Below are positions 3,480-54,278 of a stretch of DNA of 64,000 bases, piece by piece (positions within the stretch are counted from its first letter, which is position 1; each line of letters begins with the position of its first letter). Location of the stretch: the NCBI GenBank assembly GCA_963768705.1, contig CAVYJE010000028.1, forward strand, positions 90,571 through 154,570, in the 5' to 3' direction. The stretch comes from an uncultured Chloroflexia bacterium. Lineage in GTDB: Bacteria; Chloroflexota; Dehalococcoidia; DSTF01; WHTK01. The position numbers were made by a program, and so were the translations under genes. The notes under the pieces were generated by a model. The model saw nothing but the letters and a program-made list of their open reading frames with translations. It did not search any database and was not told where the DNA came from.

Positions 3480-3650
3480 GAAGGGTCAGAGTCCTGCCGT
3501 TCGGCTCGCGAGCGTCTGAGACGTAGGAGGATTGCCACGTCGGCTATCGCCTCCTCGCAACGACAGGATAGACGCCCACATTGAGGGACCCGAAGTGCGA
3601 CTCTGAATCCCATGCTCGACGGCGGCAGCCCTCTGCCGGCATGCAATGCC

Positions 3651-5303
3651 CTAGTGGTAGCCGCCGCGGAAGGTCGAGTAGTTCTTTTCCTTCGTGGTGA
3701 TGAACTCGAGCAGTGCGGGCTGGCCGTTCTGTGTGGCCTCGATGCCGCGCTTGATCGCCGGGACGATCTCGTCCGGGGAGGTGATGCGCTCGCCGTAGCC
3801 GCCGAGGGCCGTCGCGAAGTCGGCGTAGTTGCCGGAGATGTCGGTCGTGTTGAACTTCGCGTGGGAGGCCTTCATGACCGGGATCTCCATGGCCATGGAG
3901 AAGTTGTTGAACAGGATCGAGAGGATCGGGATGCGCTCGCGAACGGCGGTCTCGAAGTCCATGCCCGTCATGCCGATGGCCGCGTCGCCCCACATGTTGA
4001 TGCAGAGCTTGTCCGGCTGGGCGACCTTGGCGCCCATCGCCAGGCCGAGGCCGTAGCCGAGCTGCGTCGTCTTGCCCCAGCCGATGTAGCTCAGGGGCGC
4101 AGTCGTCTCCCAGAACGGCGATAGCTCGTCGCGCGGGCTGCCGGCGTCGTGCGTGATCACCGTGTTGGCGACGTCGACCGTGTGCAGGAGGTCCCAGATC
4201 ACCCGGTACGACTCTAGCGGCGCCTCGTTGTGGGTCAGGCGCGGCATCCACTCCTGCAGCCACGGCTCCTTCTGCGACTTGATCGTCGAGACGACCTCTT
4301 CGCGACGGCCGCGAGGCTTGCCGCCGAGCCGGTCGCTCACGGCTTCGACCAGCGCCGCCAGCGTGAGCTTCGAGTCGCCGACCAGGGCGTGCTCGGTGGG
4401 GATGTTCTTGTTGATGTCCATCGGGTCGACGGTGTTGTGGATGAAGGTCTTGCCCTCGGTGGGGAAACGGATGCCGAAGCCGGTGGCCGTGAAGCTGGCG
4501 CCGACGCCGAAGATCACGTCGGCGTCCTGTACGTGCCGGTATACCGACGCGGGCATCGCGACGCCGCCGGAGCCCAGGGAGAGCGGGTGGTTCTCCGGGA
4601 AGGAGCTCTTGCCCTCCAGGCTCGTCGTGACCGGCGCCTCCAGGAGCTCGGCGAGCTGCATGAGCTCGTCCCAGGCTTTGGCGTAGTGCACGCCCTGGCC
4701 GGAGTAGATCACGGGCCGCTCGGCGGCGATCAGGGCAGCCGCGGCCTCGTCAATGCTCTGGTCGTCCGGCGCGAACCTGGCGCGCGTCGTTGGCGTGTAG
4801 TTGATCTCGCCATCGACCTCTTCGTTCCAGATGTCGCCGGGGATTTCGAGCAGCACAGGGCCGGGGCGGCCGTTACGCGCCTGGGTGAACGCCCGGCGCA
4901 TCGAAGCGACGATGCCGGCCGGCGTCGTGACCTGCTCGGCCCACTTCGTCACGTGCTGGTAGTTCAGCGCGGCGTTGAACGCCGGCTTGACCCACGACTG
5001 GGCCCGGGCCGAGCCGCCGGGGATGGCGATCAGCGGCACCGCCTCCGAGTATGCCTGCGCGATGGCGCCGAAGGAGTTCTCGACGCCGGGACCGCCCTGC
5101 ATGCAGAAGATGCCGACGCTCTCACCGGAGCTGAGGCGGCTGCCCGCATCCGCCATGTGCACGCCGATGCGCTCCTGTCGCACGATGATCGGGCGTATAT
5201 CGGCCTCCGCAGCCGCCTCGATTAACGGGTTGAGGGGATAGGCGAAGATCTGCTTGACGCCCTCGCGCTTCAGGATTTCGGCGATGGCCTGGCTGACTCT
5301 CAT
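3651..5303 (-). CDS. thiamine-pyrophosphate-dependent enzyme (acetolactate-synthase-like family)
   Basis: 550 aa; N-terminal TPP-pyrimidine domain (..FAYPLNPLIEAA..GGPGVENSFGAIAQAY..); central domain; C-terminal TPP-binding GDAAIGMTGMDFETAVRERIPILSILFNN motif. Confidence 0.8.
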   Translation of the reverse strand: MRVSQAIAEILKREGVKQIFAYPLNPLIEAAAEADIRPIIVRQERIGVHMADAGSRLSSGESVGIFCMQGGPGVENSFGAIAQAYSEAVPLIAIPGGSARAQSWVKPAFNAALNYQHVTKWAEQVTTPAGIVASMRRAFTQARNGRPGPVLLEIPGDIWNEEVDGEINYTPTTRARFAPDDQSIDEAAAALIAAERPVIYSGQGVHYAKAWDELMQLAELLEAPVTTSLEGKSSFPENHPLSLGSGGVAMPASVYRHVQDADVIFGVGASFTATGFGIRFPTEGKTFIHNTVDPMDINKNIPTEHALVGDSKLTLAALVEAVSDRLGGKPRGRREEVVSTIKSQKEPWLQEWMPRLTHNEAPLESYRVIWDLLHTVDVANTVITHDAGSPRDELSPFWETTAPLSYIGWGKTTQLGYGLGLAMGAKVAQPDKLCINMWGDAAIGMTGMDFETAVRERIPILSILFNNFSMAMEIPVMKASHAKFNTTDISGNYADFATALGGYGERITSPDEIVPAIKRGIEATQNGQPALLEFITTKEKNYSTFRGGYH

Positions 5304-5451
5304 GCGTATGTTCCTCGTATCTAGTCTGAATGTGGCGCCATTCTAACCGAGCCGTTCGTTCGAGAGTGCTTCTTGCAAGCCTCGTCTGTGCTCGATTTGC
5401 CAGGCGGCGATTCGAGCTTGGCAGGTGAGGGGTGAGGCCAGCTCTCGCGGT

Positions 5452-6000
5452 CTATCGCGGGAGCTGTGGGGCGTCTGCGGCGGGCTCGATCTGGAGGCCG
5501 TTGAGCAGGCAGCCCATGAGCGAGTAGTAGCCCACCGTCGCGATCAGCTCGATGACGCCCGCGTCGCCGTACTTGGCCTTCGCGGCGTTGAAGTTAGCGT
5601 CGGAGAGCGCGTTCTTGCGCCGCAGCTCCAGCGCTACGTTGACCGGCAGGGCGTCGTCCTCGTTGAAGCCGGCGGGCGCCGTACGGTTGGCGATGGCTTC
5701 GAGCTGCTCCTCGGTGATGCCGGCTTCTTTGGCGATACGGAAGTGGCCCGCCCACTCGAAGCGCGCATCGACCTCACGCGCCGTCGCCAGGATCGCCAGC
5801 TCGCGCGCCCTGTCGGGCAGCACGGAATCGAAGCGGATGAAGCTACCCAGGTGGGCGACGCGATAGGTCAGCTCCGGGTTGTTGAGCACGGCGGAGAAGG
5901 GCAGGCGGACGGCGCCGCGAGTCTCCTTCAGGTAGTCGTGGATGAACTGCTTGTCTTCCGGCAGGGCGTTGCGATCGAGGACCTCGGGCAGGCGTGGCAT
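5452..6000 (-). CDS. carboxymuconolactone decarboxylase (CMD/AhpD-like) family protein
   Basis: 182 aa; CMD-family repeats (..PELTYRVAHLGSFIRF.. ..ELAILATAREVDARFEWAGH..); good RBS AAGGAG before the ATG. Confidence 0.7.
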   Translation of the reverse strand: MPRLPEVLDRNALPEDKQFIHDYLKETRGAVRLPFSAVLNNPELTYRVAHLGSFIRFDSVLPDRARELAILATAREVDARFEWAGHFRIAKEAGITEEQLEAIANRTAPAGFNEDDALPVNVALELRRKNALSDANFNAAKAKYGDAGVIELIATVGYYSLMGCLLNGLQIEPAADAPQLPR

Positions 6001-6281: not shown

Positions 6282-7066
6282 CTATCGCCATCTCACTACT
6301 GCCTTCTCGATCAGGCCTACGAGCACGAACAGCGCGAGCGATAACGCCGCGATGAGGAAGATCGCGGCCAGCACCATGTCCGTGCGGAACGAGTTGCGCA
6401 TCAGCAGCACGTAGTTCCCCAGCCCACCGGTCGACCCTGACCACTCCGCAAACACCGCGCCGACGATCGCGTAGGTGACGGCGATGCGCAGGCCCGTGAA
6501 CAGGTAGGGCAGGGCTTGGGGCACCTGGAGCAATCGCAGCGTCTTCCAGCGGTTGGCGCCGAGCGTGCGCATGAGCATCATCGCCTCCGTGTCCGCGATC
6601 GCCAGGCCCGACGCGAAGGCAACAGTGATCGGGAAGAACGTGTAGAGGGTGACGACGAGGATCTTGGGCAGGATGCCGAAGCCGAACCAGAGCACGAACA
6701 AGGGCGCGATCACGACCACGGGCAGGGTCTGAGAACCGACGAGCAGGGGATAAAGCCCGCGGCGCACCGGCGGCAGCGCGTCGATGAGCAGCGCCATGGC
6801 GACGCCGAAGGAGATGCTGACGGCGAGGCCGCTGAAGGTCTCCTGCAGGGTCTTGACGCTGTTCTCGGCCAGGATGTCCCGGTTGCGCCAACCCGCCTCA
6901 ATCACGCGCGAGGGCGCCGGTAGGGTGACGCGGGATATGCCAGACAACTCGACATAAAGCTCCCACGCACCGAACAGGGCGAGGATGATCAGGGCCGGCG
7001 GGACGACGTTGAACGCCGTCACGCTCATGCGCGATCCGAAGCCCGGCTGCGCGCTTTCGGGCGGGT

Positions 7067-8910: not shown

Positions 8911-8984
8911 GGAGTTCCTCCGCGTACGCATCCCTGACGGGCGTGCCGGAGGAAATGGAGATCGCAGCTGGCCCCGCTGCTCAT

Positions 8985-9076
8985 CACCACGCGCTTTCCT
9001 CCGCCGGCATTACCCGGATCAGGTTCGACGGGTTTGATCTCAGGCCGTCCTCAGGTCCGAAGACGACCACCCCGTG
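8985..9076 (-). promoter_or_regulatory. TPP (THI-box) riboswitch
   Basis: Minus-strand RNA CACGGGGUGG..CCUGAGAUCAAACCCGUCGAACCUGAUCCGGGUAAUGCCGGCGGAGGAAAGCGCGUGGUG. It has the P1 CACG/CGUG stem, GGGGUG, CUGAGA, ACCC, GAACCUGAUC, GGGUAAUGCCGGCG and AGGAAAG, all in canonical order and spacing. Confidence 0.85.
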
Positions 9077-9094
9077 CGTAGCGGCCCCAGCATA

Positions 9095-12043: not shown

Positions 12044-13591
12044 ATGCCTGAAGTCAGCTTCGATCTGCCCGATCCTGCGCTTGCGGAGCACACGTGGGTC
12101 CTCTTCGATGAGCACACGCCCCTCGCCTCGCCGCCGCTGGGTACGGCCCTCTTCAGCGGCCCGGCCAGCGCCGAGCAGCCCGGTGTGCCGCGCTCCATCC
12201 GGCTGAACGGCTATACCTACATGCGCCGCGGCACCGCGCCCGGGGAGGGCGGCCCTTTTGGCTCCGTCACGCTGGCGCAATCGGTCGAGGAGATGCGGGC
12301 CTGGCGCACGCGGCTGCAGCCTCAGGTCGACGACGTGGTCGGGCGGCTGCAGCAGTTCGATCCCGCCGCCGTGACGCCCGGCCACTGGCGGCGCACCCTC
12401 GACGCGCACACGAGCCTGTACTGGGGCGTCTTCGGGCCGATTCATCGCGAGGCGGTGTTCCCGGCTCACGCCGTCGCCCGCGCCTTCCAAGACCTTTATA
12501 CGCAGCGTTTCGGTCAGGAGCGCCTCGGTGATGCTGTCGCCTTGCTGCAGGGCATGCCGAACGCCTCGCTGGAGCGGGCCGCGATGCTCTGGGACCTTAG
12601 CCGCATCGTGCGCGAGGACGCCGAGCTGGCTGCGAGCATAGCCCTGGGCAAACCGGCGCCGGACACCGAGGGCGGCCGGGAGTTCCTACGGCAGTTCGAG
12701 GCGCTGCGTCAGGCGTTCGGTGCCACCGGCGAGGGCTTCGTCGAGGACCAGCCGACTTGGGGCGAGAACGACGCGATCCCGCTGATGGCGATTCGCGCCT
12801 ACGCCGGTCAGCCGGACGGCAACGGCCCGCTCGACTCGGCCCGGCGGCAAGGCGAGCACCGAGATGCTCTGGAGGCGGAGCTGCGGGCGCTGCCGAAGTC
12901 TGACGAGCAGGTCTCGGAGCTGCTACGGCTGCTGCCGATGGCGCAGGAGCTGCTGCCGAACCTCGAAGACCACAACTACTACACGGACCAACGACTGAAC
13001 GCGGCGTCCCGTGCGCGATGGCTGGCGATCGGCGGGCACCTGAGAGAGCGAGGCCTCGTGCAACAAGCGGACGATGTCTTCTATTTCCAGCGCGATGAGC
13101 TGATTGCTGCGCTCGAAGGCGAGTCGTCGTTGGCCTCCGAGGAGCTTGCCCACCGTCGCGCAGATCTTGCCCTGTGGCGCTCTGTCTCGCCGCCGCCGGT
13201 CTTGGGCAAGCCCTATGAGCAGAGCATTGATGAGCTACCGAGCGAAATGGTCGCCCGTGCCTCCGAGCTACGAGTGGTGCGCGGTGTGGGTACCTCACCG
13301 GGTAGCTACCGGGGCCGTGCGCGCGTGATCGATGCCATCGAGCAGGCGGAGACACTGGAGCCCGGCGACATCCTCGTGACGCGCGTGACTACGCCGGCCT
13401 GGACGCCGTTCTTCGGTGTCGTATCGGCGCTGGTGATCAACGTCGGGGGCCTGCTATCGCACGCCTCGGTGGTCGCGCGCGAGTTCGGGCTGCCGGCGGT
13501 CGTCGGCACGCGCGACGGCACCGTGCGCATCCCGGACGGTGCCACGATTACGGTCGACGGCACGAGCGGGCTGGTGCTCGTCGAGTCGTGA
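12044..13591 (+). CDS. PEP-utilising enzyme family protein (PpsA/rifampicin-phosphotransferase-like mobile His domain at C-terminus)
   Basis: 515 aa; C-terminal ..DILVTRVTTPAWTPFFGVVSALVINVGGLLSHASVVAREFGLPAVVGT.. is the PEP-utilisers mobile domain; the N-terminal ~400 aa has no assignable domain. Confidence 0.65.
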   Translation: MPEVSFDLPDPALAEHTWVLFDEHTPLASPPLGTALFSGPASAEQPGVPRSIRLNGYTYMRRGTAPGEGGPFGSVTLAQSVEEMRAWRTRLQPQVDDVVGRLQQFDPAAVTPGHWRRTLDAHTSLYWGVFGPIHREAVFPAHAVARAFQDLYTQRFGQERLGDAVALLQGMPNASLERAAMLWDLSRIVREDAELAASIALGKPAPDTEGGREFLRQFEALRQAFGATGEGFVEDQPTWGENDAIPLMAIRAYAGQPDGNGPLDSARRQGEHRDALEAELRALPKSDEQVSELLRLLPMAQELLPNLEDHNYYTDQRLNAASRARWLAIGGHLRERGLVQQADDVFYFQRDELIAALEGESSLASEELAHRRADLALWRSVSPPPVLGKPYEQSIDELPSEMVARASELRVVRGVGTSPGSYRGRARVIDAIEQAETLEPGDILVTRVTTPAWTPFFGVVSALVINVGGLLSHASVVAREFGLPAVVGTRDGTVRIPDGATITVDGTSGLVLVES

Positions 13592-13648: not shown

Positions 13649-13736
13649 GGAGGGGTGGCAGAGCGGTTTAATGCGGCGGTCTTGAAAACCGCTGTGGGGC
13701 AACTCACCGGGGGTTCGAATCCCTCCCCCTCCGCCA
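13649..13736 (+). tRNA. tRNA-Ser (anticodon TGA)
   Basis: 88 nt. Acceptor stem GGAGGGG/CCCCTCC; anticodon loop CU-UGA-AA; long variable arm; T-loop GGTTCGAATCC; encoded CCA end. Confidence 0.85.
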
Positions 13737-20846: not shown

Positions 20847-20922
20847 GTTTTCAGTATCAGTTCAGAGTGTCAGCGTGCGAGGCCGGTACTCGAAGAACTG
20901 AAAAAACTGACTACTGACTACT
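20847..20922. repeat. inverted array of heptamer repeats (TTTTCAG/TATCAG/TAGTCAG family)
   Basis: ggttttcagtatcagttcagagtgtcag ... gaactgaaaaaactgactactgactac; the right half is the reverse complement of units of the left half. Confidence 0.45.
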
Positions 20923-27296: not shown

Positions 27297-27383
27297 GCAA
27301 GCCGTTAGCACTCAGCTTCCAGCCATTGGCAATCAGCCTGCGTCCTCTGTGTGGTGTCTTATCGACCTTCGGGATGTCGTCCC

Positions 27384-27422
27384 GAGATTGCTTCGCCTCG
27401 CTGTCGCGATGGCTCGCAACGG
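27384..27422 (+). repeat. solo copy of dispersed repeat arm A (GAGATTGCTTCGCCTCGCTGTCGCGATGGCTCGCAACGG)
   Basis: Same 38-bp element as at 39262, 40228 and 54203 (direct) and 39088 (inverted). Confidence 0.55.
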
Positions 27423-27452
27423 GGTCGAGCGTGCTCGAGCGGACGCAAAAAA

Positions 27453-27474
27453 GGAGCGGCCCGAAGGCCGCTCC
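27453..27474. terminator. intrinsic terminator hairpin between convergent ispB-like gene and fmdB-like gene
   Basis: caaaaaa-GGAGCGGCC-cgaa-GGCCGCTCC-tgttgc; on the minus strand the A-run becomes the U-tract after the hairpin (terminating fmdB). Confidence 0.6.
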
Positions 27475-27508
27475 TGTTGCTGAGTGCTGAAAGCTGACTG
27501 CTCGCCGG

Positions 27509-39031: not shown

Positions 39032-39040
39032 CGGGCGAGT

Positions 39041-39068
39041 TTTCAGTTTTCAGTTTTCAGTTATCAGT
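39041..39068. repeat. heptamer tandem repeat (TTTTCAG x3 + TTATCAG)
   Basis: gttttcagttttcagttttcagttatcagttc immediately after the recQ stop. Confidence 0.55.
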
Positions 39069-39087
39069 TCTTGGCAATCGCCACCTC

Positions 39088-39302
39088 GTAGCGAGCCATC
39101 GCGATAGCGAGGCGAAGCAATCCCGTTCTCGCGACCGTTCGTTGAACTACGGCTGCTCGCGTGCGTTATGGAACCCTGTAGGGGCGCATGGCCATGCGCC
39201 CCTACGACGGCGCCGTCATCTTTCGGATGTTGGTGCGCGGATCGAACCCTGTCGGTGGACCGGGATTGCTTCGCCTCTCCCTACAGTCGATGGCTCGCAA
39301 CG
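39088..39302. repeat. composite dispersed repeat element: arm A (inverted, 39088-39125) - 32-bp perfect palindrome B (39174-39206) - arm A (direct, 39262-39302)
   Basis: A = GGGATTGCTTCGCCTCkCyryCGcGATGGCTCGCAACG; B = CCCTGTAGGGGCGCATGGCCATGCGCCCCTACG; the same B-A pair recurs at 40146-40270 and 54113-54240, and A alone at 27384-27422. Confidence 0.6.
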
Positions 39303-39387
39303 AGGAGATGGGGTGGCCTCGAGTTCGCAATCCGATGCCCCAAACGGCACTGCCCGATTGTGCGACCGGCGCGCCTATAATCTGGGC

Positions 39388-40065
39388 ATGACGATATTCC
39401 CCCATGACCTACGCGCCGGTGCCGACGTTTACAGCAGCGATGGCCAGAAGCTCGGTGAGCTGCACCGGGTTGTGCTGGCTCGCAGCGACCTTCGGGTTAC
39501 GCATGTCGTGGTCGACATCGGGTTTTTGCGGTCGGGGCGGCCGATCTGGCAGGGCGGCCTCGGGCTGGACTACGACCGCGTCGTGGACATCGGCGACGTG
39601 GCGAGCGCGACGACTGAGCGCGTCGACCTGGGGCTGACGGCGGAGCAGTTCAAGGACCTGCCGGAGTACACGGAAGAGACGTACGAGGAGCCGAAGGACC
39701 TTTCGCCGAACGAGTACGACCTGCCGGACGTGGTGACGCAGCTCAATCACCTCTCCTCGATCTTCAACAGCACAAGCGGCCTGTGGCTGTACGAGAACCT
39801 GCGGAAGTCCGACAACGAGATCGACATCTCGGAGGGCACGCCGGTCTGGCGCCGCGAGCCGCACGAGAAGCTGGGCGACGTGAAGCAGCTGATCTTCGAC
39901 GAGGCGTCGGGGCAGCTTCAGGCGCTGGTGATCGCGCGGGGCTTCATCTTCAAGCACGAGGTGGTGCTGCCGATCCGGCACGTGGTCGAGATGTACGACG
40001 ACCTCCTGCACGTCGATATCGCCGACAAGGACATCGAGGGGCTGAAGGCGTACGAGGCGGGGTAG
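39388..40065 (+). CDS. PRC-barrel domain protein (two PRC-barrel-like repeats)
   Basis: ..DVYSSDGQKLGELHRVVL....THVVVD.. and ..LIFDEASGQLQALVIARGFIFKHEVVLPIRHV.. ; flanked on both sides by repeat-filled intergenic regions. Confidence 0.6.
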   Translation: MTIFPHDLRAGADVYSSDGQKLGELHRVVLARSDLRVTHVVVDIGFLRSGRPIWQGGLGLDYDRVVDIGDVASATTERVDLGLTAEQFKDLPEYTEETYEEPKDLSPNEYDLPDVVTQLNHLSSIFNSTSGLWLYENLRKSDNEIDISEGTPVWRREPHEKLGDVKQLIFDEASGQLQALVIARGFIFKHEVVLPIRHVVEMYDDLLHVDIADKDIEGLKAYEAG

Positions 40066-40070
40066 CTTCG

Positions 40071-40100
40071 AGCTGATAGCTGATAGCTGATAGCTGATAC
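40071..40100. repeat. heptamer tandem repeat (AGCTGAT x4), reverse-complement family of the 39041 array
   Basis: agctgatagctgatagctgatagctgatac directly after the PRC-barrel gene stop. Confidence 0.55.
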
Positions 40101-40145
40101 TCGAGGCGAGAAGGGCGCACTGCGGGATCGAGAACGGCCGGGCGT

Positions 40146-40270
40146 CGTAGGGGCGCATGGCCATGCGCCCCTACAGGGTTGCATCATCGCAAAGGACTTG
40201 CTCGAGTCAACGGGCCGTCGCGTAGATCGGGATTGCTTCGCCTCTCCCTACCGGTCGATGGCTCGCAACG
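40146..40270. repeat. composite dispersed repeat copy 2: palindrome B (40146-40178) + arm A (40228-40270)
   Basis: cgtaggggcgcatggccatgcgcccctacaggg ... gggattgcttcgcctctccctaccggtcgatggctcgcaacgagg. Confidence 0.6.
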
Positions 40271-40345
40271 AGGAGCCTGGGGGCGGTTTGTCGCGCTCCA
40301 GAGCGTCTGGGTTACTTGAGGGCGGTTCCTTGATACTCTTCTGGC

Positions 40346-42789
40346 ATGGATGAGCACGCCCTTCGGGTCCTCGAGTACGACAAGGTGCTGGCGCGCCTTG
40401 CTGCCCTGACGTCGTTCTCGGGCGGGCGGGAGCTGGCGCTGGCGCTGAAGCCGTCGCCGGACTACGACGAGGTGCTGGAGCGGCAGCACGTGCTCGCGGA
40501 GGCGATCCGGCTGCGGGCGGCCCGGCTGCCGCTGAACCTGAACAGCGCGCTCGACGTGCGGGCAGGGGCTGGAGAAGGCGAGCATCGGCGGCGCGCTGGA
40601 TGGGCAGGAGCTTCTGGCGGTGGCGGCGACGCAACGGGCGGCGCACCAGGCGCGGGCCGTGCTTACGCGGGTCGCGACGCAGTTCCCGCGCCTCGGCGGG
40701 CTGGGCGAGGACCTGATCGAGCACGAGGCGGTGGTCTCGGAGATCGGTGGGGCACTGGACCAGCGCGGCGAGGTGGTCGATGGCGCGTCGCCGGCGCTGA
40801 CGATGCTGCGGCGCAACATCAAGGTGTCGCACGACCGTCTGCAGGCGAAGCTGCAGGAGTTCCTTGGGTCCGCGGCGGGTCGGCTGGCGGCGCAGGAGTC
40901 GCTCGTGACGCTGCGAGACGGTCGCTACGTGATCCCGGTGAAGGCCGACTTCCGGGGCGAGGTGCGCGGCATCGTGCACGACGTCTCGTCCAGCGGCGCC
41001 ACGGTATTCATCGAGCCGCTGGCGGTCGTGGAGCTGGGGAACCAGTGGCGCGAGTACCAGATCGAGGAGCGCCGGGAGGTCGAGCGCATCCTGCGGCGGC
41101 TCAGCGAGGTCGTGGGCGCCGTCGCGGGCGACATCGTGGCCGAACGTGGGGCTGCTGGCGCAGCTCGACCTGGCGATGTCGGCGGCGCGGCTGGCGGAGG
41201 AGCTCTCGCCAGCGGGGATGACGGTGCTGCCGGGAACTGAAGAGCCCCTCCCCCAACCCCCTCCCCGCTGGCGGAGAGGGGGCATGATGCCGCGGCGCCG
41301 GAGACGTGGCTGCAGCGATCGCCGGGGGTGCTGGAGCTGCGTGAGGCGCGTCACCCGCTGCTGACGACGCCGGTGCCGATCTCGTTGCGCATGGGCGGCG
41401 ACGACCGCGTGCTGCTGATCACGGGGCCGAACACGGGCGGCAAGACGGTGGCGCTGAAGACGGTGGGGCTGCTTTGCCTGATGGCGCAGTCGGGGCTGCC
41501 GGTGCCGGCGGAGCCGGGGAGCACGCTGCCGGTGCTGGAAGAGGTGCTGGCGGACATCGGCGACGAGCAGAGCATCGAGCAGTCGCTGTCGACGTTCAGC
41601 GGGCATCTGCGCAACGTGATCTCGCTGCTGGAGCGCGCGGGGCCGAAGTCGCTGGTGCTGCTGGACGAGCTGGCGGCGGGCACTGACCCGGCCGAGGGCG
41701 CCGCGCTGGCCCGGGCGTTGCTGCAGGACCTGCTGGGCAAGGGCGCCCTGACGATGGCGACGACGCACCACGGCGAGCTGAAGCTGTTCGCGCACTCGAC
41801 GCCGGGCGTGGTCAACGCGGCGGTCGAGTTCGACTCGGTGACGCTTTCGCCGACGTATCACATCGTCATGGGCGTGCCGGGGCGCAGCAATGCGTTGGCG
41901 ATCGCGGCGCGCCTGGGCCTGCCGGAGTCGATCCTGCGGACGGCGCAGGAGTCGTTGGCGCCGGAAGAGGCGGCGATGGAGTCGCTGCTGACGGAGCTAC
42001 ACCAGGAGCGTGAGGCTGCTCTGCAGGCGCGCCAGGGCGAGCAAGAGGCACGCCGCCGGGCCGAGGACGCCCGCCGCAACATCGAGCAGCGCCTGGCGGG
42101 CATCGACGAGGAGCGGGCACGGCGGCTGGACGAAGCTGCGCTGGCACTCGAAGCCGAAGTAGAAGCCGCACGCGCCGGCCTGCAGCGAGCGCACCGCATG
42201 GCGGAGCGACGTCTGGTCGCCGAGGTGACGCCCGAGGAAGCCGCGGAGGCACGCGAGGCGATCGGCCAGGCTTCCGACACGGCGAAGCGGCATCCGCAAG
42301 CGCTCGCGCCGCCGGCGTCGCAGCGGGCTGCAACCGGAGCAGATCGTGCCCGGGGCAGAGGTGTGGATCCAGGGCGTGCCGATGGCGGCCGAGGTGCTGA
42401 CGAAGCCCGACGCGCGGGGAGAACTTGACGTAACGTTCGGGGGCCTGCGGGCACGGGTCGGCGTCGGTCAGGTTGTGCGCGTGCAGGCGGCGACACCGAA
42501 GCCGGCGGAGCGCACCGTGATCCCGCGGGCGCCGGCGTACGCTGCTCAGGAGATCGAGGTGCGCGGCCAGACCCTGGACGAGGCGCTGCCGCTGATCGAC
42601 AAGTTCCTCGATGACGGGTTCCGGGCCGGTGTGCCGCGGTTGCGCGTCGTGCACGGTAAGGGCACAGGGAAGATGCGCAACGCCGTGCGCCAGATGCTGA
42701 CGAAGCACCCGCTGGTCAAGGGCTTCGAGTTCGCCGAGCCCAGAGAGGGCGGCGAGGGCGTGACCGTCGTCGATATGGCGCTGGGGTAA
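40346..42789 (+). pseudogene. mutS2: endonuclease MutS2 (Smr-domain), about 4 frameshifts
   Basis: MDEHALRVLEYDKVLARLA.. ; ..RDGRYVIPVKADFRGEVRGIVHDVSSSGATVFIEP.. ; Walker A ITGPNTGGKTVALKTVGL ; ..SLVLLDELAAGTDPAEG.. ; coiled-coil ; C-terminal Smr ..LRVVHGKGTGKMRNAVRQML.. spread over three frames. Confidence 0.75.
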
Positions 42790-54112: not shown

Positions 54113-54240
54113 CCCTGTAGGGGCGCACGACCGTGCGCCCCTACGTAGCGCCGGTGACCCTGCCGAGCGGTTGGTGGTGATCATGTTGGCCTGAAGAGCA
54201 CCGGGATTGCTTCGCCTCGCTATCGCGATGGCTCGCACGG
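54113..54240. repeat. composite dispersed repeat copy 3: palindrome B variant (54113-54146) + arm A (54203-54240)
   Basis: ccctgtaggggcgcacgaccgtgcgcccctacg ... gggattgcttcgcctcgctatcgcgatggctcgcacgg; the palindrome carries a compensatory T->C / A->G pair relative to copies 1 and 2. Confidence 0.6.
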
Positions 54241-54278
54241 GGGATGGCGCGGTTTCTCGGCGGTATTGATGAGTGGGG

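Follow-up and report, generated by a model that had tools for sequence, protein, structure and literature searches.

The 64-kb stretch of Chloroflexota DNA analyzed here (the window, ~65% G+C, to which all coordinates refer) carries two kinds of short hairpin-forming repeat, termed A and B, between its genes. An earlier inspection of the letters alone, here called the sequence-only reading, had listed five A-type copies, at 27384(+), 39088(-), 39262(+), 40228(+), and 54203(+), and three B copies, at 39174, 40146, and 54113, all of them intergenic. Our analysis bore this out: the copies lie between the genes for a polyprenyl synthase and a Zn-ribbon protein, RecQ and a PRC-barrel protein, the PRC-barrel protein and MutS2, and a HEAT-repeat protein and GpsA, and dinucleotide-preserving shuffles gave a chance expectation of 0 for both A and B matches. 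The signs of the A copies as first listed run opposite to the strand that carries the short 5' tag of each copy (the tagged strand). A covariance model (R1), five of whose 46 training sequences were the window's own A copies, regained these five in the window with filters off at 45-60 bits (E 1e-10 to 1e-15) and added a sixth, weaker A-type copy of a 'cousin' subtype at 3525-3568(-) (15.9 bits, E 0.024). Most probably, the region is an intergenic mosaic of two unrelated, known classes of hairpin repeats whose characterized enzymes act on single-stranded DNA (ssDNA), A belonging to the CGTC-tagged repeats known since 2025 as Ssn-related motifs (SRMs) and B to the GTAG-tagged repetitive extragenic palindromes (REPs). 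The features, with the scores of the A copies under the covariance model, are the following.

39084..39128, tagged strand +: A copy, left arm of a doublet (49.3 bits, E 5e-12), composed of a CCTC tag, GTAGC, GA, GCC, A, TCGC-GATA-GCGA, GGC, GAA, GCAAT, C
39126..39177, strand -: spacer s1, from B to the left A, homologous to the spacer at 40175-40227 (alignment z = 6.6, 0 of 2000 shuffles as good)
39178..39205, no strand: B copy 1, a 28-bp perfect GTAG...CTAC palindrome (GTAG-class REP)
39206..39258, strand +: spacer s2, from B to the right A, with a weak likeness to the spacer at 54145-54202 (z = 2.2, p = 0.03)
39259..39305, tagged strand -: A' copy, right arm of the doublet (59.6 bits, E 5e-15), composed of CCTC, GTTGC, GA, GCC, A, TC-GAC-TGTAG-GGA-GA, GGC, GAA, GCAAT, C
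40147..40174: B copy 2, an identical palindrome with flanks inverted relative to copy 1, reading CGTC, then GTAG...CTAC, then AGGGTT on the + strand
40175..40227, strand +: second copy of spacer s1, aligned to 39126..39177
40226..40273, tagged strand -: A' copy (60.2 bits, E 3e-15)
54117..54144: B copy 3, center ACGACCGT, corresponding to the ACGGCCGT subtype plus a loop G>A (-15.8 kcal/mol, z -6.0)
54200..54243, tagged strand -: A copy with a damaged stem base, CCCCC-GTGC... (45.1 bits)
27381..27424, tagged strand -: solo A copy (53.9 bits) with the consensus fold (-12.3 kcal/mol, z -2.9)
3525..3568, strand -: 'cousin' A-type copy, composed of TGTC, GTTGC, GAGGAG, GCGATAGC, CGACGTG, GCAAT, C

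A had been taken for a plain 38-bp terminal inverted repeat, whereas A by itself makes a hairpin, whose 5' tag and 3' C are conserved. On the complementary strand, it forms a hairpin of ~44 nt with a bipartite stem and an unpaired tag, (C/T)GTC or CCTC, at the 5' end; its parts follow the order tag, ATTGC, GA, GCC, A, TC-variable stem-loop-GA, GGC, GAA, GCAAT, C, and then usually TC. Exact matching of the A core (GATTGCTTCGCCTC, 4-20 nt, GATGGCTCGC) against one genome per species located it in 55 loci of metagenome-assembled genomes (MAGs) of Dehalococcoidia, Chloroflexia, and Candidatus Berkelbacteria, a single MAG often holding several copies. When the copies from these loci were lined up, the ends were constant and the middle differed in sequence yet was always self-complementary. 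The covariance model matched 133 A-type copies in 515 kb of fetched DNA. In the A alignment, 92.5% of the cells were paired, compared with 23-62% in slid controls, and changes on both sides were seen in 10 of 14 pairs, including all six pairs of the apical (inner) helix; none of 500 shuffles reached the observed pairing and covariation values, which are to be read with the caveat that the alignment was fitted to the model and favors structure. On the 5' side, 127 of 130 copies had a C next to the stem, and the T and G before it occurred in 85 of 130 each, all at positions left free in the scan pattern; on the 3' side, a C immediately followed the stem in 130 of 130, a count partly forced by the scan pattern and the model. 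Pair 1 was A-T in 81 of the 130 copies, G-T in 9, and T-T in 23, and pairs 2 and 3 were T-A in 126 and 124.

Within the window, three copies bore a CCTC tag, two a CCCC or CCCCC tag, and one a TGTC tag; the first stem pair of the A copies was G.T, and the 3' C was kept in six of six. The copies at 39262 and 40228 have a different center, TCCCTAC(A/C)(G/GG)TCG, which is another apical stem-loop of the same hairpin and not a decayed arm. The apical stem of the copy at 39259..39305 contains tandem G.A pairs, and its apical subtype recurred in loci L035, L037, L066, L073, and L080. The 'cousin' copy sits between two minus-strand genes, and its subtype was also found upstream of genes for a GIY-YIG nuclease (ssn, described below) in L054, L081, and L036. 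The copies at 54200..54243 and 39091-39125 share 35 identical nt (inverted repeat I3). The solo copy lies between convergent genes and beside an intrinsic terminator at 27447-27475, which serves the minus-strand Zn-ribbon gene. A full-text literature search for words of the repeat sequence returned primer matches only. For the GA/GAA loops, the k-turn and the hammerhead were considered by eye and rejected on strand lengths and core nucleotides.

To find recurring neighbors of A, we clustered the open reading frames (ORFs) of the 55 A-bearing loci. The sole ORF family directly abutting A was a GIY-YIG protein of 95-99 amino acids (Pfam PF01541, E 1e-14 to 1e-16), present in five of the 55 loci; with three loci fetched via protein homologues, inverted hairpins flanked the GIY-YIG gene in eight (L036, L054, L071, L081, L082, L089, L090, and L091). 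Seven of these eight carry A-type hairpins on both sides of the gene: the forward hairpin, GTCATTGCGAG...GAAGCAATCTC, ends a few nt before the start codon, and the reverse hairpin begins at the stop codon, TGA being directly followed by GATTGCTTCGCC...CTCGCAATGAC. In the eighth, L071, the gene is flanked in the same manner by the related variant GTCATTCTGAGG...GAAGAAT. The L082 protein showed 47% identity over 94% of the length (E 7e-21) to a 94-amino-acid Neisseria gonorrhoeae orthologue, which has Y6 and Y17 as in SsnA and is encoded among five exact NTS copies; repeats of the form GTCATTCTGAG...GAAGAATC flank a cyanobacterial homologue with 63% identity. The GIY-YIG proteins beside A fell into no specific NCBIfam family, and the PDB returned just a remote UPF0213 relative (E 0.07). 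Judged by sequence, the theme common to the Ssn-flanking repeats is GTC, ATT, stem, AAT, C.

Ssn nucleases are 94-amino-acid single-domain GIY-YIG enzymes whose genes are flanked by hairpin repeats, namely NTS in Neisseria (CGTCATTCCCGCGMAVGCGGGAATCYRG; order NTS-ssnA-NTS) and 'Ssn-related motifs' elsewhere (Chenal et al., 2025, PMC11893778). Binding and cleavage of NTS by SsnA are confined to ssDNA and to one strand, and the enzyme does not bind RNA; cleavage is influenced by the GTC that precedes the stem, and binding by the C that follows it (PMC11893778). A resembles the SRMs and the Neisseria NTS-dRS3 repeats with SsnA (PMC11893778) in the GTC directly 5' of the stem, the ATT...AAT base, and the 3' C, as well as in its many intergenic copies, the inverted copies flanking a gene for a GIY-YIG protein of ~95 amino acids, and clusters that can surround ordinary genes. 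It differs from them in its length (~44 nt) and architecture (5 bp, a GA/GAA internal loop, 3 bp, a bulged A, and a variable apical stem), in leaving the published pattern unmatched, and in its hosts, Chloroflexota and Berkelbacteria. The window copies differ further from NTS in their CCTC or CCCC tags and G.T first pair, and this A subtype is known from sequence alone.

REPs are split into GTAG and CGTC superfamilies, and the CGTC tag may be TGTC or CCTC; CGTC stems begin with A-T pairs, inverted dimers predominate, and dimers with 20-100 bp spacers, possibly holding stem-loops, are common (Di Nocera et al., 2013, PMC3733652). In this scheme, Neisseria dRS3 makes up family CGTC-1; as of 2013, the CGTC class had no known enzyme of its own (PMC3733652). 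A agrees with families CGTC-1 to CGTC-4 (PMC3733652) in the terminal CGTC/TGTC/CCTC tag, the A-T stem start, the short unpaired tail, the preponderance of inverted dimers, and the coexistence with GTAG repeats, as in some genomes. Those families are simple stems of 8-9 bp with loops of 4-5 nt, whereas A has internal loops and a longer, variable apex; moreover, CGTC repeats were unreported from Chloroflexi in that survey (PMC3733652), and the doublet spacer here is 136 bp. From these sequence features, we assign A to the CGTC-tagged REPs or Ssn-related motifs, as a longer, bipartite family.

Two further observations concern the ssn cassettes. They interrupt otherwise conserved operons, ybaB/recR and thiolase/CoA-transferase (L090 2931-3340, L089 1715-2108, and L091 2584-2990), and the window's relatives L101 and L102 carry ybaB-recR without an ssn insert; such insertions are consistent with mobility of the whole cassette. 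In Dehalococcoidia loci, small GGGGC-loop-GCCCC hairpins (e.g., GAAGGGGCGAAGCCCCTTC) accompany the A-type hairpins at either end of ssn cassettes, at a distance of a few nt (L054 ~6700-6760 and ~6330-6360; L081 ~4030-4060 and ~4600-4640; also L049 and L053), and these may be regarded as a second hairpin partner of A, analogous to B in the window.

B, previously described as a perfect palindrome of 32 bp, is a perfect palindrome of 28 bp, GTAGGGGCGCATGGCCATGCGCCCCTAC, at 39178-39205, 40147-40174, and 54117-54144, the flanks CCCT...G not being complementary to each other. Judged by these flanks, the copy at 40146 is inverted relative to the other two, and copies 1 and 2 constitute an inverted repeat (I2) of 42 nt with 98% complementarity. 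As ssDNA, copy 1 forms a stem of 12 bp closed by a loop of four nucleotides (-15.3 kcal/mol, z -5.3). In copy 3, three bases are changed, ATGGCCAT being replaced by ACGACCGT; T>C and A>G are mirrored and leave the 12-bp stem intact, and G>A falls in the 4-nt loop. The mirrored pair had been interpreted as a structure-preserving substitution, and the preserved stem stands; copy 3 is better read as a member of the common ACGGCCGT subtype with one loop mutation, two in-place compensating mutations being less likely.

A scan for the B arms with a free center (GTAGGGGCGC, N8, GCGCCCCTAC) found them in 21 viral-contig loci and at least 120 metagenome loci, amounting to at least 148 B-type copies (at least 125 from metagenomes and 23 from viral contigs) with 46 distinct central octamers among the copies listed. 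Fifteen distinct centers among the 148 copies listed were perfectly palindromic, compared with the 1.3 expected from shuffling and a shuffled maximum of 6. Among the 125 metagenome copies listed, the center was AGCATGCT in 62, ACGGCCGT, the second commonest, in 11, and the window's own ATGGCCAT in 1, which also occurred in 1 of the 23 viral-contig copies; the flanks were not conserved across these 125. The proposals of the sequence-only reading that the repeats are dispersed REP-like hairpin families and that the hairpins are under structural constraint were upheld, and both families are conserved far outside the window.

Of the 33 distinct B types in which the two adjacent pairs are kept, 15 also had self-complementary bases at the four central positions, which would form the hairpin loop, where ~1 in 16 is expected; this loop symmetry exceeds what a stable hairpin needs and hints at duplex-level symmetric recognition or arm-to-arm copying. 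CGTC directly abuts two of the three window copies, giving CGTC followed by GTAGGGG..., at 39206-39209 on the minus strand (where GACG adjoins copy 1, 39178..39205, on the right) and at 40143-40146, and AGGG follows all three copies on the same side. B was considered as a CGTC-type element on account of these two copies and rejected, as it has neither the A-T stem start nor the 3' C.

A search for a cognate REP-associated tyrosine transposase (RAYT), which the sequence-only reading had suggested, was the right idea for B. ORF clustering revealed a RAYT-like Y1 transposase gene in 6 of the 120 metagenome B loci listed. The same clustering around B in viral contigs returned related phage genes only. 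The RAYT-like proteins matched NCBIfam NF047646 (REP-associated tyrosine transposase) with E about 1e-19 and scores of 66-70 against a cut-off of 80, and their match to Pfam Y1_Tnp was weak. In L175, the RAYT-like gene (4986-5447) has B copies at 4815 and 4938 on one side and at 5582 and 5783 on the other. In L129, L130, L207, and L218, an in-frame B palindrome lies inside the RAYT-like ORF just after the HUH motif, and in L197 a related arm variant (GTAGGGGCAC...) occupies this position. The in-ORF palindromes are located as follows.

L129, 389-416
L207, 457-484
L218, 477-504
L130, 1500-1527
L197, 1160-1187 (arm variant)

Their context reads, for example, ...NHVHGIV...VGAQHAAPL..., and the center varies between RAYT-like genes; the in-ORF palindrome probably explains why the scores fell below the NCBIfam cut-off.

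GTAG stands at the 5' end of a GC-rich stem-loop in three of the three window B copies. B resembles the GTAG REPs in this order of tag and stem-loop, in its intergenic and multicopy occurrence, in a stem kept by paired changes, and in the identical-arm palindromes that flank the RAYT-like gene of the metagenome locus L175. It differs from them in being a perfect 28-bp palindrome with a loop that is self-complementary in many subtypes and in its in-frame presence inside several RAYT-like ORFs, and the window copies are single rather than REPIN doublets. GTAG-tagged REPs with RAYT / TnpA-REP transposases were reportedly also the subject of Nunvar 2010 and Ton-Hoang 2012. The association of GTAG-tagged REPs and REPINs with these tyrosine transposases has been described (Bertels and Rainey, 2011, PMC3116915; Messing, 2012, PMC3479197). 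On its sequence, B is classified as a GTAG-class REP, unusual in its paired GTAG. By analogy with the characterized enzymes, A and B would be served by different enzyme systems, a GIY-YIG Ssn nuclease and a RAYT-like Y1 transposase, respectively.

The segment 39088-39302, which the sequence-only reading had singled out as an A(inverted)-B-A arrangement, was confirmed as an inverted A pair with a B-bearing spacer of 136 bp. In the minimum-energy fold of 39079-39310 as ssDNA (-72.6 kcal/mol, z -7.4), the A arms pair with each other, making a single long hairpin that carries B close to its tip. Among all loci, adjacent A-type pairs no more than 400 nt apart were forward-then-reverse in 22 cases and reverse-then-forward in 6; gaps of 280-292 nt corresponded to ssn cassettes and gaps of -4 to 64 nt to gene-less doublets, and the gap of the window's pair was 125 nt. 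Set against a REPIN, in which two inverted REPs with a short spacer form one long hairpin, the window doublet has paired arms, but its spacer is longer than those of the other gene-less doublets, and the two spacer halves are not complementary. The polarity of the doublet is that of an ssn cassette, with tags outward and tails inward. The units 40143-40270 and 54113-54240 are B-spacer-A half-units. The gap between B and A was 48-57 nt in four of four pairings, the B at 39174 being shared by the A copies to its left and right. Homology (z 6.6) was seen between the B-to-A spacers of 39209-39088(-) and 40143-40270(+), two units whose A apical stems nevertheless differ; the spacers of 39174-39302 and 54113-54240 were marginally similar (z 2.2). 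All four combinations of spacer type and A apical type occurred across the four units, and such shuffling points to recombination or gene conversion among copies.

A and B had been proposed to make up one composite family. The A model, however, gave 0 matches in 629 kb of B-bearing loci, and the A-bearing loci contained just five GTAG palindromes, none of the three checked (L051, L069, and L085) abutting A. A and B are two separate families, and their linkage in this genome is not random. The window resembles the Neisseria intergenic mosaic elements (NIMEs) and the bacterial interspersed mosaic elements (BIMEs) of E. coli in that intergenic hairpin repeats alternate with other segments and are shuffled from site to site; it differs in having CGTC and GTAG classes interleaved ~50 nt apart, with one to three hairpins per array.

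Two other origins of this arrangement were considered. The sequence-only reading had likened 39088-39302 to a miniature inverted-repeat transposable element (MITE), and its length of ~215 bp, inverted A arms, intergenic position, and long-hairpin fold would suit a classical MITE in which the A arms are terminal inverted repeats for a DDE transposase and B is internal cargo. No direct repeats or target-site duplication were seen at its ends, however, and the 64-kb window holds only one full A-B-A unit, the other B-A units being shuffled half-units; the arms are conserved hairpins that occur across phyla as single copies, as tandem copies, and on the flanks of GIY-YIG genes, and, the GIY-YIG gene aside, no transposase family recurs beside A in the 55 loci. 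No DDE transposase was found. We consider the MITE interpretation highly improbable. The two B-spacer-A units with homologous spacers, inverted around the PRC-barrel gene, could also be ascribed to a segmental duplication or gene conversion confined to that gene's surroundings instead of a genome-wide family, but this is extremely improbable given the copies in unrelated surroundings at 3.5, 27.4, and 54.2 kb and conservation beyond the window, other MAGs carrying the A core at 55 loci and more than 120 metagenome contigs carrying B.

Comparison with relatives placed the arrival of the repeats in this lineage. L101 and L102 encode RecQ proteins 87% and 78% identical to that of the window and keep the RecQ-PRC(-MutS2) gene order. 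A and B were absent from both, at the orthologous sites and throughout each 22 kb, and the intergenic regions of both are shorter than the window's. The closer relative, L101, keeps the PRC promoter gcgcctataatctgggcATG almost exactly, and L102 keeps only TATAAT. In the alignment of the window's intergenic DNA with that of its nearest relative, only the terminator and the promoter aligned; this DNA is too diverged for insertion boundaries to be defined. Most probably, A and B were gained in this lineage and take no part in regulating the genes beside them.

The orientation of A was also informative. The tagged strand of A-type copies fell on the C-rich strand of the locus in 83 cases versus 32 (p = 2e-6), or 26 versus 7 when counted by locus, with the caveats that the skew of an 8-kb locus tracks replication direction only roughly and that copies sharing an array are not independent. 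In the window, the + strand is G-rich, and five of the six tagged strands lie on the minus strand. This placement may reflect a replication-strand bias, and it supports DNA-level biology. Between co-directional genes, the tagged strand was sense in 26 cases and antisense in 23.

Such indifference to gene direction bears on whether A and/or B are mainly RNA elements (stabilizers in 3' untranslated regions, terminators, or small RNAs), with the covariation produced by RNA selection. REPs can stabilize mRNAs. The strong apical covariation in A, the preserved pairing in B, and the position of all copies between genes, some right after stop codons, would fit this explanation, and Di Nocera et al. 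(PMC3733652) argued for transcription of many REPs and for a possible role as RNA. Against it stand the near-equal numbers of sense and antisense tagged strands and the B-A units of the window, which occur in both orientations to genes. No Rfam family was matched at A or B in the window and the ssn cassettes at gathering or permissive thresholds (E up to 10), the elements are missing from orthologous intergenic sites of relatives with the same genes, Neisseria SsnA does not bind RNA (PMC11893778), and the self-complementarity of the B center extends through the loop, beyond the needs of an RNA hairpin. An intrinsic terminator was rejected for both A and B, neither of which has a T-run after its hairpin. 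Selection at the RNA level, which the sequence-only reading had allowed for, is therefore disfavored, and we regard a mainly RNA-based role as quite improbable.

Several observations weigh against assigning A and B to the Ssn-associated and GTAG REP classes. As isolated ssDNA, the A hairpins folded weakly (-5 to -12 kcal/mol, z +0.2 to -2.9), and G:T pairs (22) and A:C pairs (21) in A were balanced, so that the covariation does not show which strand folds. The published degenerate SRM pattern, HGTCWYN(0-2)YYVSBRHN(0-5)WNVSBRGN(0-2)RNCYNB (Chenal et al., 2025, PMC11893778), had no match on either strand of the window; the A consensus and the cousin and L071 subtypes do not fit it either, and the Neisseria NTS does. 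This pattern spans at most 35 nt and serves as a search aid, not as a family definition. Neither an ssn gene (tblastn) nor a RAYT gene is present in the 64-kb window, and the RAYT link of B comes from other organisms and arises partly from the palindrome inside the gene itself. The GTAG of B pairs with CTAC, whereas the classical tag is unpaired, leaving B without intrinsic orientation. The window A copies deviate in their CCTC/CCCC tags instead of GTC, their G.T instead of A-T first pair, and one lost stem base, and they could be decaying relics. Finally, the 48-57 nt spacing of B and A extends across two non-homologous spacer types, which independent accumulation leaves unexplained.

The deviations just listed lead to the possibility that the window copies are inert fossils of Ssn and RAYT systems since lost, which would modify the assignment to two hairpin classes and not replace it. 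The CCTC/CCCC tags in place of GTC, the G>A loop mutation, the deleted stem base, and the lack of an enzyme gene in 64 kb are in line with such decay, as is the proposal that CGTC families are possibly heading to extinction (Di Nocera et al., PMC3733652). The 35 nt shared identically by two A copies across 15 kb and the 42-nt, 98% match of B copies nevertheless indicate recent copying, the absence of the elements from relatives indicates recent gain, and CCTC is a recognized tag variant whose presence in three of six copies suggests a lineage-specific specificity. We consider it possible, although doubtful, that the copies are inert.

Two more novel readings concern how the repeats spread. Either a GTAG REP was captured in this lineage between CGTC/Ssn hairpins, the ~50-nt-spaced B-spacer-A modules then being copied as units (cross-mobilization), or Ssn nucleases drive a replication-coupled, strand-biased spread of hairpins beyond a restriction-like role. 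The 83 versus 32 strand bias, the cassette-like polarity of gene-less doublets, and the ssn cassettes inside conserved operons are compatible with these readings, which we judge rather unlikely.

If the mosaic of two hairpin classes is accepted, a mechanism can be outlined by analogy with the published enzymes. An Ssn nuclease of the organism would bind the tagged A strand as ssDNA and cut a few nt 5' of the tag, and a RAYT-like Y1 (HUH) transposase would act on B as an ssDNA hairpin. A hairpins would spread as ssn cassettes, gene-less copies, and inverted doublets, and the half-units and the shuffled spacers and apices would arise by recombination or gene conversion among copies.

Other features of the window stand apart from A and B. 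TATAAT 6 nt upstream of the PRC-barrel ATG (39372-39390) and GATACT 8 nt upstream of the MutS2 ATG (40322-40348) look like promoters of leaderless mRNAs, and the PRC promoter is kept almost base for base in L101 at ~12305-12326. Tandem heptamers (AGTTTTC x4.6, AGCTGAT x4.1, and ACTGACT x2.4, plus degenerate heptads) occur right after stop codons; they resemble the short tandemly repeated heptamers (STRR) of cyanobacteria. Relatives have other heptamers at the same positions, L102 carrying GCAACAG x4 after the PRC gene and an inverse copy before mutS2. The heptamer repeats are located as follows.

Window, 39038-39069
Window, 40071-40099
Window, 20906-20922
Window, 27297-27340
Window, 27476-27505
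L101, ~12182-12205
L102, ~13092-13120
L102, ~13290-13335

The MutS2-like gene at 40346-42789(+) is split over three frames (40346-41221, 41328-42428, and 42346-42789), whereas its orthologue in L102 is a single ORF of 796 amino acids with MutS_V and Smr domains; the split points to either pseudogene frameshifts or indel errors of long-read assembly. The window also contains a thiamine pyrophosphate (TPP) riboswitch at 8979-9084(-) (63 bits) and a tRNA at 13649-13733(+).

The repeats are real but ordinary, being two known kinds of bacterial hairpin repeat between housekeeping genes. What is new here is modest: a longer, bipartite CGTC/SRM family typical of Chloroflexota and the candidate phyla radiation (CPR), and the interleaving of GTAG REPs with it at a fixed spacing. 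A common 'mystery' repeat of Chloroflexota and CPR genomes, GTCATTGCGAG...GAAGCAATC, often mistranslated as small hypothetical proteins, is now placed in the CGTC/Ssn class, whose enzyme and function are recent discoveries. For annotation, such intergenic blocks should be masked as REP-type repeats and not annotated as ORFs, small RNAs, or MITEs. Surveys of Ssn targets under-count because the SRM pattern misses the longer bipartite subtype, and natural hairpin-enzyme pairs of this kind could add to the site-specific ssDNA nucleases that have been put forward as tools.

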